From: a virus
Lineage: Duplodnaviria > Heunggongvirae > Uroviricota > Caudoviricetes
Length of the DNA stretch: 15,126 nt
Virus record (IMG/VR): IMGVR_UViG_2737471857_000007
Coordinates: 1-15,126 of that record
Strand: one strand, 5' to 3'
A model generated the notes under the pieces. That model saw only the letters and a list, made by a program, of their open reading frames with translations, was not told the origin of the DNA and searched no databases. Position numbers and translations under genes: made by a program. Positions 2,263 to 15,126 of this stretch are shown here, in pieces (position 1 is the first letter of the stretch; each line of letters begins with the position of its first letter).

Positions 2263-2811
2263 GTGAAGGTTAACAAAAAGAAACTGGCAGAGATTTTTGA
2301 GTGTGATGTCAGAACAATCACTGGCTGGCAAAGTCAGGGGCTGAGAGTTTTGTCGGGGGGAGGCAAAGGTATCGAGGCCATGTTCAATACTGCAGAAGCC
2401 ATTGAGTGGTATGCGCAGCGGGAAAAAGATATCGAAAACGAAAAGCTCCGCAAAGAACTGGAAGATTTGCGTGCGGCTGCAGAATCAGATTTACAACCCG
2501 GCACCATTGACTATGAACGCTACCGGCTCACCAAAGCACAGGCTGACGCACAGGAGATGAAAAATGCCCGTGAAGAAGGGCTGGTGCTGGAAACGGAATT
2601 GTTTACCTTCATTCTGCAACGTGTGGCACAGGAGATTTCGGGGATACTTGTACGTGTGCCGCTGACATTACAGCGTAAATATCCGGATATTTCACCGTCA
2701 CACCTTGATGTGGTGAAAACTGAAATCGCGAAAGCCTCCAATGTTGCAGCTAAAGCCGGTGAAAACGTGGGCAGGTGGATTGATGATTTCAGACGCACAG
2801 AAGGCAGCTAA
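2263..2811 (+). CDS. Nu1: terminase small subunit (lambda gpNu1-like)
   Basis: GTG start with GAGGA 11 nt upstream. N-terminus [26 protein letters not shown] resembles lambda Nu1 MEVNKKQLADIF..RTIQNWQEQG (winged-HTH DNA-binding end). 182 aa versus 181 in lambda. 3' end overlaps the A start by 29 nt, as in lambda. Confidence 0.9.
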
Positions 2812-4699
2812 TGCAGCCGGTGCGATAGCTACAGGGCTTTTATCTCTCAATATTCCGGTTCCACTGACGACGGTTCAGTGGGCTGATCAACATTATTATC
2901 TGCCGAAAGAATCTTCATACACTCCCGGACAATGGGAAACCCTGCCGTTTCAGGTTGCCATTATGAACAGCATGGGAAATGACCGGATCCGCACCGTTAA
3001 TCTGATTAAATCGGCGCGCGTTGGTTACACTAAAATGCTGTTGGGGGTGGAGGCTTATTTTATTGAGCATAAATCCCGTAACAGTCTGCTTTTTCAGCCA
3101 ACAGATTCTGCGGCAGAAGATTTCATGAAATCTCATGTTGAGCCAACGATCAGGGATGTCCCTGCATTGCTGGAGCTGGCTCCATGGTTCGGAAGAAAAC
3201 ATCGTGACAACACGCTCACTCTGAAGCGTTTTTCCTCCGGTGTGGGGTTCTGGTGCCTGGGCGGTGCCGCAGCTAAAAACTACCGTGAAAAATCTGTGGA
3301 TGTGGTCTGCTATGACGAACTCTCCTCGTTTGAACCGGATGTGGAAAAAGAAGGCTCGCCGACGCTGCTTGGCGATAAACGTATCGAAGGCTCGGTATGG
3401 CCTAAATCCATACGTGGCTCAACGCCGAAAATTAAAGGCTCCTGCCAGATTGAGAAAGCCGCGAATGAATCTGCGCATTTCATGCGGTTTTATGTCCCTT
3501 GCCCTCATTGCGGGGAGGCTCAGTATCTGAAGTTTGGCGATGATGCGACGCCGTCTGGCCTGAAATGGGAGAAGGGTAAACCGGAAACGGTGTATTACCT
3601 GTGTGAACATAATGGCTGTGTGATCCGCCAGTCGGAACTTGATCAGACCGACGGGCGCTGGATTTGTGACAATACCGGGATGTGGACGCGCGACGGCCTG
3701 GCATTTTACAGCGCCGGTGATGAGGAGATGCCGCCACCGCGCTCCGTCACTTTCCATATCTGGACGGCGTACAGCCCGTTCACCACCTGGGTACAGATTG
3801 TTTATGACTGGCTGGATGCACTGAAGGATCCGAACGGTGTCAAGACGTTTATTAACACCACGCTCGGGGAGCCCTATGAAGAGGCCGTGGCAGAAAAACT
3901 GAGCTTTGAGTTGTTGCTGGAAAAAGTCTGCCACTATGGCGCGCAGGTTCCCCTGCGGGTGGTTTACCTGACCGCCGGGATCGACTCCCAGAAAGATCGC
4001 TACGAAATTTATGTCTGGGGCTGGGCGCCTGGCGAAGAAGCTTTTCTGATTGATAAGCAAATTATCATGGGGCGACCGGAAGACGAGGACACCCTTAAAC
4101 GTGTTGATGCGGTGATCCGGAAAAAATACCGCCATGCTGACGGTACTGAAATTTCCATTTCCCGTGTCTGCTGGGATACCGGTGGTATCGACCAGGACAT
4201 TGTGTATCAGCGTTCCAGGAAACACGGCACTTTTTTTGTGCTTCCCATAAAAGGGGCATCGGTGTACGGCAAGCCGGTGATCACCATGCCCAAAAAGCGC
4301 AACCAGCGTGGTGTGTTTTTGTGTGAGGTGGGCTCCGATACCGTCAAGGAAATGCTGTACGCCCGTTTTGCCCTGCCAGTGGTCTCTGCCAGTGAAGCTG
4401 CCCCGTATACCTTCCGTTTTCCGGATAACCCCGACATTTTTTCGGAAGAAGAGGCGCGTCAGATCGTGGCGGAAGAGCTGGTGGAGAAGGTGGTTAATGG
4501 CAGGGTGAAACTGCTGTGGGATAAAAAAGGGCGACGCAACGAAGCCCTCGACTGCCTGGTATATGCCTATGCTGCCCTGCGTATTTCAGTTCAGCGGTGG
4601 CAGCTGGATCTTGAAGCACTGGCCCGTGCCAGAAGAGATGAGCAGGACGACGATGAGATGAGTCTGGAAGAAATCGCGGCTGCACTGAGTGGAGGATAG
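2783..4699 (+). CDS. A: terminase large subunit (lambda gpA-like)
   Basis: Long blocks shared with lambda gpA as recalled: [113 protein letters not shown]. Start ATG 2783 chosen by alignment to the lambda N-terminus; the ORF is open from 2741. Confidence 0.95.
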
Positions 4700-4701
4700 T
4701 G

Positions 4702-13528: not shown

Positions 13529-14111
13529 CGATATCAGGAGCATACTGCCGGTCAGTGCCAGCCGGGCGGAGCGGGTGGTGGACTGTGTCGCCGGAGATAT
13601 GCTGTCAGATATAGCGGTCTGCCTGATCCGCTATGTGAAAAATCCCGATTTATGTCCTGCTGAATTGCTGCCATGGCTGGCCTGGGAAATGGCGGTGGAC
13701 ACCTGGAATGAACACTGGACGGAGGCGGAAAAACGGTCTGCGATAAAACGTGCTGCTTACATCCACCGCCACAGAGGGACTAAAGCGGCGCTGATGGCAT
13801 CGCTGGCTGACAGTCCCTTCCGGTCGCAGATTGTTGAGTGGTATGAGCAGACCCCACCCGGGGAGCCGTATACCTTTCGTCTGAACGTGGAGCAGAAGGA
13901 TTTACCGGTACTGATGAATGATCATCAGGATCTGAAGCATGCGGTACTCCGTGCCAAAAATCTGCGCAGCTGGTTCAGTATTCACGTCTACGGGAACAGC
14001 ACAGGGCGGGGATTTGGTTACGGCTATGTGATGGCGACAGAAAAAATCAGAAGTACCGGTGTGATAACAAAGACAGTGCCCACTGAAGGGCAGAGTGAGG
14101 CAGGAGTATGA
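13521..14111 (+). CDS. I: baseplate / tail protein I (P2 gpI-like)
   Basis: 196 aa. VCLIRYVKNPDLCPAELLPWLAWEMAVDTWNEHWTEAEKR resembles P2 gpI (..CLIR.SKNP.TCPASLLPWLAWEWGVDTW.DDWTEEQKR). ATG 13521 preceded by AAGGTGGAG; overlaps the J 3' end by 8 nt. Confidence 0.8.
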   Translation: MNDDIRSILPVSASRAERVVDCVAGDMLSDIAVCLIRYVKNPDLCPAELLPWLAWEMAVDTWNEHWTEAEKRSAIKRAAYIHRHRGTKAALMASLADSPFRSQIVEWYEQTPPGEPYTFRLNVEQKDLPVLMNDHQDLKHAVLRAKNLRSWFSIHVYGNSTGRGFGYGYVMATEKIRSTGVITKTVPTEGQSEAGV

Positions 14112-15126
14112 ATGGACTGATTCTGACAACGTCCGGCGCAGCAGAAATTGAAGCAGCATATCAGAACGGGCAAACCGTGACCGTCCGGCATGTTCTGCTT
14201 GGTGACGGGGGCGGGCAGGCATTGCCATCCACGCCGGATGAAATGGCAGCAATGACATCATTGTACGGCGAATTCGGGCAGGAACCCTTTTCCGACGGTG
14301 CGGTGGAGGAGGGCTTCATCAGCGGGGATATTGTGATTGACTGTAAATCATACCCCGGTAAAACCCTTCGTGAACTGGGGATGATCAGCGACAGAGGTAC
14401 GCTTATCGCGTACGGACGTTATCCGGACACCTTTTTACCAGACCAGACGGATTCCGTTATTAAGGAAGTTATTCTGACGCTGGTTCTTGGACTGACGCAC
14501 GCGCAAAGCGTGGTGCTGGAGGTTGATCCGGACAGAGCCATTATTACTCAGGAAATCGGAGACAGACGCTATCTGCAACGAAAAAATAATCTTTCGGATG
14601 TGGAAGACAAGGATGAGTCTGTTGAAAACCTCGGATTAAAACCCACGGTGGATAAGGCAAAAAATGCCGTTCAGCGTGATGGTGACACCATGAGCGGGGA
14701 ACTGAAAATCCGTGGTGTTAATGCGCTGAGGATTTTCAACGAAGCCTTTGGTCTGATTTTTCGCCGTTCGGAAGAGTGCCTGCACCTTATTCCTACCAGT
14801 GAAGGTCAGGGTGAAAATGGTGATATTGGCTCATTGCGCCCGTTCAGTATTGACTTGCGGACGGGGGAGATATCCATGTCGCACAAAGTGTCTGTTGGCG
14901 GTGGCTCTCAGGTGAATGGTGCGCTGGGTATCGGTGTTCAGAATGCGCTGGGTGGTAACTCAATTGCAATTGGTGACAGTGATACTGGCTTTAAACAGAA
15001 TGGTGACGGCCTGCTGGATGTTTATGCCAATGGTCAGCACGTATTCCGTTTTCAGAATGGCGAGTTACAAAGTAACCGGGCAGTGAATGTTTCAGGGCGG
15101 GTGACACCGTCAGACTACGGAAACTT
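14108..15126 (+). CDS. H: tail fibre protein (P2 gpH-like), 5' portion only, truncated by the window end
   Basis: ATG 14108 overlaps the I stop (ATGA). N-terminus MNGLILTTSGAAEIEAAY..VLLGDGGG resembles P2 gpH (..VITTAGAAKLAAA..MAVGDGGG). Downstream blocks AVQRDGDTMSGEL and NALGGNSIAIGDSDTGFKQNGDGLLDVYANGQHVFRFQNG match conserved P2 gpH motifs (AVQKNGDTLSGGL; NALGGSSIVLGDNDTGFKQNGDGILDVYANSQRVFRFQNG). No stop before the window end; this ORF is absent from the supplied track for that reason. Confidence 0.85.
   Translation, partial: MNGLILTTSGAAEIEAAYQNGQTVTVRHVLLGDGGGQALPSTPDEMAAMTSLYGEFGQEPFSDGAVEEGFISGDIVIDCKSYPGKTLRELGMISDRGTLIAYGRYPDTFLPDQTDSVIKEVILTLVLGLTHAQSVVLEVDPDRAIITQEIGDRRYLQRKNNLSDVEDKDESVENLGLKPTVDKAKNAVQRDGDTMSGELKIRGVNALRIFNEAFGLIFRRSEECLHLIPTSEGQGENGDIGSLRPFSIDLRTGEISMSHKVSVGGGSQVNGALGIGVQNALGGNSIAIGDSDTGFKQNGDGLLDVYANGQHVFRFQNGELQSNRAVNVSGRVTPSDYGN

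Follow-up and report, generated by a model that had tools for sequence, protein, structure and literature searches.

The late operon of a lambdoid Escherichia coli prophage probably joins a lambda/phage 21-type head to a P2/R-pyocin-type contractile tail

The analyzed window, a stretch of 15,126 nucleotides, harbors from position 2263 to its end (15126) a block of genes that are all located on the plus strand (Table 1). Their order is Nu1-A-W-B-C-D-E-FI-FII, followed by two neck genes, V-W-J-I and the start of H. All 16 open reading frames of the window (16/16), gpA included, are intact and tightly packed. FII overlaps the gene for a 240-amino-acid protein by 20 nt, and the gene for a 188-amino-acid collar protein overlaps V by 17 nt.

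Table 1. Features of the window (E-values refer to the family named in the same cell; identities are those of the amino acid sequences)
Feature	Position	Strand	Evidence
Candidate cosN-like sequence GGACGGCAGACG	2076..2087	+	placed solely by alignment to the phage 21 left end
cosB-like array	2129..2243	+	R3 2129-2143, inverted R2 2182-2193, R1 2229-2243
Terminase small subunit Nu1	2263..2811	+	PF07471, E=8e-85; 87% identical to phage 21 Nu1
Terminase large subunit gpA	2783..4699	+	GpA_ATPase, E=8e-55, and GpA_nuclease, E=3e-68; 83% identical to phage 21
Head-tail adaptor gpW (head)	4699..4911	+	PF02831, E=2e-24; 47% identical to phage 21 W
Portal gpB	4908..6479	+	PF05136 lambda-family portal, E=3e-94; 73% identical to phage 21
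S49-family prohead protease/scaffold gpC	6469..8085	+	PF01343, E=2e-33; 60% identical to phage 21
Head decoration protein gpD	8124..8459	+	PF02924, E=2e-23; 74% identical to phage 21
Major capsid protein gpE	8528..9556	+	PF03864, E=2e-66; 82% identical to phage 21
DNA-packaging protein FI	9604..9972	+	PF14000 Packaging_FI, E=2e-13; 41% identical to phage 21
Head completion/head-tail joining protein FII (Hc1)	9969..10376	+	PF05354 Phage_attach, E=2e-12
Final ~26 codons of FII (3' end), head/tail recombination joint	10296..10376	+	inherited with the neck/tail module
Predicted 240-aa tail-completion protein, gpZ family of lambda (Neck1/Tc type)	10357..11079	+	phrog_27, E=4.5e-26, residues 15-239
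Collar/tail terminator, 188 aa	11076..11642	+	homologue of R2-pyocin PA0615
Baseplate spike gpV	11626..12249	+	TIGR01644 phage_P2_V, 69 bits (cutoff 46.75); apex motif; 27% identical to P2 V
Baseplate wedge/sheath initiator gpW (gp25-like)	12283..12639	+	PF04965, E=3e-15; 39% identical to P2 W
Baseplate wedge gpJ	12614..13528	+	PF04865 Baseplate_J, E=2e-22; 40% identical to P2 J
Baseplate wedge gpI	13521..14111	+	PF09684 Tail_P2_I, E=2e-35; TIGR01634
Tail fiber gpH, cut by the window end	14108..15126	+	PF12571 tail-collar fiber N-terminal domain, E=2e-14

The nine packaging and head genes scored above the Pfam gathering threshold without exception and are colinear with those of lambda, as had been claimed in the first-pass annotation. 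Nu1 to FI share 41-87% of their amino acids with the phage 21 proteins, the exception being FII with 26-32%; the latter also matched phrog_82 ('head closure Hc1', E=2.5e-29). On the nucleotide level, similarity to phage 21 stops at position 9725 within FI, and none was found between the head gene W and phage 21 W. For gpB, PGAP gives 4956 as the start. Upstream of Nu1, the candidate cos region contains three repeats that may correspond to the R3-R2-R1 layout of lambda and phage 21. Seven of the 12 bases of the cosN-like sequence match the lambda/21 cohesive end, and next to it a block of 26 nt (2100-2125) hardly differs from positions 25-51 of phage 21. The spacing between the cosB-like R3 and R1 sites, 100 bp, agrees with the phage 21 annotation, whereas the sequence of the repeats differs from that of phage 21.

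Two neck genes, both designated 'hypothetical protein' by RefSeq in these prophages, can now be given names. The 240-amino-acid protein belongs to the same PHROG as phage 21 gpZ (phrog_27, E=3e-68 for the latter), and its gene is situated between FII and the terminator gene as expected of gpZ. Alignment of its family with the single phage 21 gpZ sequence by hhalign was non-significant, fold searches were weak or empty, and PDB searches by single sequence and by family profile resolved no match. By family and position, the protein is a member of the lambda gpZ family, with a predicted role in tail completion. The gene order shared with lambda, previously thought to end at FII, is correct up to this gene but extends one gene further. 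The 188-amino-acid protein gave a marginal PDB match to PA0615 when searched as a single sequence (E=0.26), which was resolved by the family profile. The protein is a collar of the R-pyocin type: it is homologous to PA0615 over its full length and has the tail-terminator fold shared by Mu gp37-type terminators, lambda gpU and T5 p142. Neither neck protein matched a Pfam or NCBIfam family, and hhalign of the neck family alignments against the single phage 21 gpU sequence as well as against P2 gpR and gpS was non-significant. P2 gpR and gpS, for which no solved relatives were found among the PDB sequences, are grouped in other PHROGs (phrog_65 and phrog_26, respectively). A scan of genome contigs with the collar protein yielded no confirmed relative. 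The first-pass annotation had described a direct joining of head and baseplate genes after two small adaptor-type genes. Two intervening genes are indeed present, but they are not small, and as neck and tail-completion genes they separate the modules.

For V, W, J and I, the assignment as P2 baseplate homologues was upheld by family thresholds (gpV by its TIGR model, its Pfam score lying below the cutoff) and by 27-47% identity to the P2 proteins, and the order V-W-J-I-H is that of P2, as annotated initially. The gpH gene is present at full length in the related locus L001. In relatives, the region downstream of the window contains genes for a fiber chaperone, sheath, tube, E/E', tape measure, U, X and D. 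Of the Pfam matches, those for sheath, tube, TAC_7, GpU and tail_X lay above the cutoff and that for GPD was weak; none was obtained for the tape measure protein. The supposition that sheath, tube and tape measure genes follow downstream proved correct for prophages 99.4% and 97.8% identical to the window, where they lie directly beyond the segment corresponding to the window; from these relatives, sheath and tube are presumed for the present prophage too. The two prophages also carry lambdoid early (P, RusA), Q and lysis genes. Neither lambda tail genes nor P2 head genes were found in them, and the lambda tail genes V, G/GT, H, M, L, K, I and J were detected neither in the window nor in the 17 kb that follow it in L001 and L009.

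Of 5426 complete E. coli genomes, 77 have the junction E-FI-FII-Z-collar in one contiguous piece, and 69 genomes carry at least 80% of the window; the lineage accounts for about 1.3-1.4% of complete genomes. A terminase gene is frameshifted in the close relative 08-00022, so some copies are defective, and IS elements occur in some relatives. The phage collection contained no isolated phage matching neck and baseplate at >80% nucleotide identity.

A second head module was found in front of the same neck and tail. The IMG/VR locus L022 possesses a yong2-type head (TerL, portal, ClpP-MCP), while its neck and tail proteins are 85-100% identical to those of the window (~92% on the nucleotide level). 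In a blastn comparison, similarity of the window to L022 begins at 10296, within FII. Matches of E. coli genomes to L022 begin at the same point (window ~10296), and the L022-type breakpoint is independently present in E. coli A19. The FII proteins of window and L022 are nearly identical at the C-terminus and ~30% identical over the first ~108 amino acids. The head module takes along the first ~108 residues of FII, the tail module the last ~26 (LARGEPGR.TPAAP.RPSKRYGSQRA). Modules are exchanged at the FII/neck joint, with the breakpoint within the last ~26 codons of FII.

Taken together, the window very probably represents the late operon from which a lambdoid E. coli prophage builds its virion, combining a lambda/phage 21-type head with a P2/R-pyocin-type contractile tail. 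The mixture of head and tail genes could also be a recent one-off event, in which the head of a lambda/21-like siphovirus was newly fused to a P2-like tail, possibly with poor compatibility. This is the reading implied by the first-pass annotation. It would agree with the 60-87% identity to phage 21 quoted for Nu1 to E, with the different head type of the nearest tail relatives (yong2 and Chris1, 41-58%) and with the head swapping that is demonstrably going on. However, Gamma- and Alphaproteobacteria have the order of lambda-type head, collar and P2-type baseplate in common, with identities of 25-63%, an indication that the arrangement is old and functional, and the junction is contiguous in 77 E. 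coli genomes. Moreover, Vibrio phage Valp1 has a functional virion; electron microscopy showed it to be a myovirus whose contractile tail measures 90 nm (PMC11054321). A one-off recombinant is therefore very unlikely and, judged by the distant syntenic relatives, largely refuted. Even less probable is a tail-less lambdoid remnant beside a P2-like prophage or an R-type tailocin cluster: a tail gene order that, starting with the collar, matches the R2-pyocin cluster PA0615-PA0628 (of which the PDB entry bears out just the name 'Collar PA0615'), and the IS elements and frameshifted terminase of some relatives would suit adjacent or decayed elements, but start and stop codons overlap across the junction, no integrase, P2 head genes or lysis cassette lie between the modules, the 16 frames are intact and the same synteny exists in the isolated phages Valp1 and vB_EcoM-569R10, so that a headless tailocin and tandem or decayed elements were rejected.

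For a single late operon with head and contractile tail, an assembly pathway can be proposed. Following the lambda paradigm, Nu1 and A would cut and package the DNA at a lambda-style cos, the procapsid would be built by B, C and E with D as decoration and FI assisting packaging, and the portal would be closed by W and then FII. By analogy with P2 and with the structures of R-pyocins, the baseplate would be formed by V, W, J and I together with D and U encoded downstream, H and its chaperone would add the fibers, and tube and sheath would polymerize around the tape measure. The 188-amino-acid collar may then form the terminator ring capping tube and sheath, and the 240-amino-acid protein of the gpZ family may complete the tail. 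On the finished head, the FII ring would dock on the terminator ring as lambda FII does on gpU. The joint would then be an ordinary stopper-terminator interface, as the collar, having the gpU/Mu terminator fold, offers FII a conventional terminator ring and not an alien P2 structure. The question of how a lambda head could fit a P2 tail, raised on first inspection, has thereby largely disappeared since the protein beneath FII has a universal fold. It is conceivable, albeit tentative, that the C-terminal peptide of FII is a portable determinant by which a head docks to the tail at its collar/gpZ end. If so, this peptide would constitute a minimal, exchangeable head-tail joining code. A tractable host and two head types on one tail make the joining specificity of FII, gpZ and collar directly testable; complementation or peptide swaps are feasible in E. 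coli but impractical in Wolbachia. For this prophage, a particle with a contractile tail is predicted from the genes, which may be obtainable if the prophage is inducible.

The combination of a lambda-type head with a contractile tail is real and no novel mosaic. It has been known since the work on Wolbachia phage WO, where chimerism of lambda and P2 was noted by Masui et al. (PMC3235987), and is present in many bacteria and in other isolated myoviruses. No current concept is changed by our data, which add a well-populated E. coli lineage to the known temperate myoviruses with a lambda-type head and a P2/R-pyocin-type tail. The finer result is new: the same neck and tail stand behind a different head module, with the joint inside the 3' end of FII.

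Compared to lambda and phage 21, the likeness of the packaging and head genes continues with a gpZ-family gene and a gene for a protein with the gpU fold, whereas W, the N-terminus of Nu1 and the cosB-like array have diverged, the siphovirus tail (tube V, G/T, H, M, L, K, I, J) is missing and the terminator belongs to the collar type, which binds the sheath. With P2 and the R2 pyocin of Pseudomonas aeruginosa, the prophage shares the sets V-W-J-I-H-chaperone and sheath-tube-E/E'-T-U-X-D (the second seen in relatives), and with the pyocin also the collar. Contrary to P2, it lacks gpR, gpS and the head genes Q, P, O, N, M and L, and its two tail operons and the head genes form one contiguous, co-oriented block. 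As a whole phage it does not fall within the Peduoviridae, its head genes being of lambda type and its relatives carrying a lambdoid Q antiterminator. Among isolated phages, Hafnia phage yong2 and Citrobacter phage Chris1 have the most similar neck and tail proteins (41-58%) and share the FII-Z-collar-V block and lambdoid early genes. Their heads, however, contain a fusion of ClpP protease and major capsid protein, with TerL and portal only 23-25% identical, and their tail order is V-sheath...D-W-J-I-H. The order A-W-B-C-D-E-FI-FII-Z-collar-V-W-J-I-H-sheath-tube...D also occurs in Escherichia phage vB_EcoM-569R10, Valp1 and WOcauB1. The first two have their virion genes, from terminase to gpD, in exactly this order, but the proteins are 25-63% identical; Valp1 is a telomere (protelomerase) phage with a PAAR gene, and the record of vB_EcoM-569R10 holds only ~20 kb of structural genes. 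In phage WO (WOcauB1, WOVitA1; proposed Symbioviridae), lambda-type genes for terminase, W, portal, C, D and E precede gpFII, gpZ, collar, gpV, gpW, gpJ and gpI, followed by fiber, sheath and tube; the order FII-Z-collar-V-W-J-I has been published (PMC3235987; PMC9203015 S1 Text). Homology to the 188-amino-acid collar is detectable in WO gp8 (28% identity), and WO gp7 falls in the gpZ PHROG of the 240-amino-acid protein. WO differs in a PAAR gene between V and W, which the window does not have, in its large serine recombinase, ankyrin genes and eukaryotic association module, and in its alphaproteobacterial host; protein identities are merely 25-44%, and the early region of the E. coli relatives is lambdoid. 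Thus, the prophage has the same architecture as the WO-like viruses but stands outside the proposed Symbioviridae.

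The long ORFs of the virion module are closely spaced and all lie on the plus strand. Its first nine genes each exceed the gathering score of a Pfam family of lambda packaging or head proteins (Nu1, gpA with ATPase and nuclease domains, gpW, lambda-family portal, S49 protease C, decoration protein D, capsid protein E, FI and FII). The five last genes encode P2-type baseplate and fibre proteins; V exceeded the cutoff of TIGR01644 (phage_P2_V), and gp25/W, Baseplate_J, Tail_P2_I and the tail-collar fibre N-terminal domain exceeded those of Pfam. The family thresholds confirmed the claim of the first-pass annotation that lambda-type head genes are followed by a P2-type baseplate and fibre cluster. 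Strong GC-rich hairpins directly 3' of D and of E may be mRNA-stabilising or partial-terminator elements favouring the highly expressed capsid genes.

The window is an E. coli prophage. Among 5426 complete genomes of the species, 69 carry at least 80% of it. In the top-matching strains, 08-00022 (99.4%) and RM9088 (97.8%), genes for a fibre assembly protein, sheath, tube and an E chaperone with a small E'-like ORF lie directly 3' of the window, followed by those for a 550-aa protein of tape-measure size, gpU, gpX and gpD. Pfam confirmed sheath, tube, TAC_7, GpU and tail_X. The sheath and tube genes predicted downstream are hence present in these relatives, and the window's own copy probably continues likewise. 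Lambda tail genes and P2 head genes are absent from both prophages. Upstream, both carry lambdoid early genes (repressor-type HTH proteins, replication protein P, RusA, antiterminator), tRNAs and a lysis cassette, and their insertion site adjoins a truncated ompW. Since the terminase large-subunit gene, intact in the window, is frameshifted in 08-00022, some copies of the prophage are defective.

The two neck genes between FII and V, annotated in RefSeq as hypothetical proteins in 08-00022 and RM9088, matched nothing in Pfam or NCBIfam. The 188-aa protein is a member of phrog_1072, a family of unknown function. Among isolated phages, homologues of the protein are restricted to Hafnia phage yong2, Citrobacter phage Chris1, Vibrio phage Valp1, four vB_EcoM phages of Escherichia and numerous WO phages of Wolbachia. 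A 14-sequence family profile of this protein matched the R2-pyocin "Collar PA0615" (PDB 6u5f) over its full length (E=9.6e-15), which identifies it as a collar-type tail terminator. Less securely, the 240-aa protein likely belongs to the gpZ family. It matched phrog_27 ("tail completion or Neck1") with E=4.5e-26, as did phage 21 gpZ (E=3e-68), and phrog_27 also takes in WO gp7 and its positional equivalents in Valp1 and vB_EcoM-569R10, whereas P2 gpS and gpR fall into PHROGs 26 and 65. Functionally, the lambda order FI-FII-Z-U is retained as FI-FII-Z-like-terminator. The first contractile-tail gene of the window is the collar, as is presumably the case in the R2-pyocin cluster.

In lambda, the head filled with DNA attaches through its FII ring to the terminator ring formed by gpU. 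In the window, FII would face a terminator of the same fold, and lambda proteins would need no docking onto P2's own gpR/gpS neck. The structural compatibility of head and tail, raised as a non-trivial question by the first-pass annotation, would therefore be reduced to an ordinary stopper-terminator interface.

Relatedness to phage 21 varies along the module. Amino acid identities are 87% for Nu1, 83% for A, 82% for E, 74% for D, 73% for B and 60% for C, but only 47% for W and 41% for FI; FII had no BLAST-level match (32% by pairwise, 26% by multiple alignment). Nucleotide similarity to phage 21 ends inside FI and is lacking in the stretch of gene W. gpW is about as distant from its counterparts in the myoviruses vB_EcoM-569R10 (46-50%) and Valp1 (43-44%); in this adaptor, which contacts FII, the region forms a small patch of mosaicism. 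Among isolated phages, yong2 and Chris1 come closest from the gpZ-like gene through I (41-58%). Their heads are of another type, in which a ClpP protease is fused to the capsid protein, and their TerL and portal proteins are only 23-25% identical to those of the window.

A putative lambda-style cos region 5' of Nu1 contains a block that hardly differs from phage 21 positions 25-51 and a cosB-like array of three AGATCC(G/T)TTCTTCTT repeats (direct-inverted-direct). The 100-bp R3-R1 spacing is that of phage 21 cosB, but the repeats (AGATCCKTTCTTCTT) are unlike those of phage 21. Nucleotide similarity sets in no earlier than 2387, near codon 42 of Nu1; the end of Nu1 that recognises DNA thus appears to have diverged in concert with its binding sites. 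Seven IMG/VR relatives have a Nu1 of just 37-39% identity but a gpA of 94-96%, which indicates a putative second packaging-specificity allele.

Positions of features in the window and in two related prophages
Sequence	Feature	Position	Remark
Window	i-spanin	18-383	Rz-like, phrog_214
Window	o-spanin	124/202-543	LysC-type (Pfam LysC)
Window	low-GC segment	600-2000	37-42% GC, ~54% elsewhere
Window	gene of unknown function	631-978	phrog_1935
Window	promoter-like site	1069-1097	of the 1075-1608 gene
Window	gene of unknown function	1075-1608	phrog_5091
Window	terminator-like hairpins of the 1075-1608 gene	1625-1647, 1663-1683	strong
Window	cosB-like repeats and 5' part of Nu1	2129-2400 region	
Window	virion module	2263-15126	
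Window	similarity to phage 21	2387-4623, 4941-7652, 8130-9725	nucleotide level
Window	gene W stretch	4623-4941	
Window	hairpin 3' of D	8480-8504	
Window	hairpin 3' of E	9560-9580	T run next
Window	start of similarity to L022	10296	inside 3' end of FII
Window	240-aa neck gene	10357-11079	
Window	188-aa neck gene	11076-11642	
L001 (08-00022)	terminase large-subunit gene	18283-20198	frameshifted
L001 (08-00022)	second fibre set	37385-40260	
L009 (RM9088)	S8-family peptidase gene with its two flanking toxin B-subunit genes	13151-15078	subtilase-like
L009 (RM9088)	second fibre set	38953-44534	broken up by IS66-family element

Searching IMG/VR with the gpZ-like family gave 209 relatives; 80 loci were retained and mapped with reference proteins. 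The window-type head and tail occurred in 27 of them, and about 50 were of the yong2 type. A single locus, L022, combined yong2-type TerL, portal, ClpP-MCP and FII with neck and tail proteins 85-100% identical to those of the window. Nucleotide similarity between the two starts within FII, the last 26 residues of which are almost identical while the preceding ~108 are ~30% identical. The complete E. coli A19 genome carries the L022 junction without interruption, matches to L022 start exactly at this point in 80 other E. coli genomes, and 77 genomes have an uninterrupted window-type junction. By these genome comparisons, the FII/gpZ boundary, which is the border between two separate assembly pathways, is where head and tail modules are exchanged. 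This natural head swap with a breakpoint inside FII is the only, mildly new point of the analysis, and it provides a testable handle on head-tail joining specificity.

At the left edge of the window, an overlapping spanin pair in the style of P2 lysB/lysC closes the lysis cassette shortly ahead of the virion operon. The low-GC segment between lysis genes and cos is moron-like cargo; in 08-00022 it is partly different and harbors an opposite-strand LPS core heptose(II)-phosphate phosphatase gene. After gpD, both related prophages possess another set of fibre genes, which resembles the lambda side-tail fibres (Pfam phage_tail_N and fibre repeats, then a DUF4376 protein), and two fibre types may be present on the virion. 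Between the tRNA and holin genes of RM9088, an S8-family (subtilase-like) peptidase gene is flanked on each side by a gene for a subtilase-family AB5 toxin B subunit (n=2), suggesting that this prophage may be an AB5-toxin-converting phage. Of such a peptidase/B-subunit set, PMC10562709 mentions only a B-subunit homologue.

The overall reading of the first-pass annotation was essentially right and the feature is real, but the lambda-head/P2-tail architecture is already known and widespread. A literature search revealed no paper specifically on the E. coli lineage of the window. From terminase through gpD, Escherichia phage vB_EcoM-569R10, Valp1 and Wolbachia phage WOcauB1 have this gene order. 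The record of vB_EcoM-569R10 (19.9 kb), deposited as a "complete genome", holds nothing but virion genes, starting with a partial terminase gene and ending with gpD. Genes for replication, lysogeny and lysis are absent from the record, which may be either a fragment or part of a defective prophage that was packaged. PMC11054321 describes Valp1 as a myovirus whose head measures 60 nm and whose contractile tail measures 90 nm. The Xylella prophages XfP1 and XfP2 are cited as lambda/P2 chimeras in PMC3235987, which also restates the report of Masui et al. on lambda-head/P2-baseplate chimerism in WO. Apart from the PAAR gene, the published WO arrangement is exactly that of the window.
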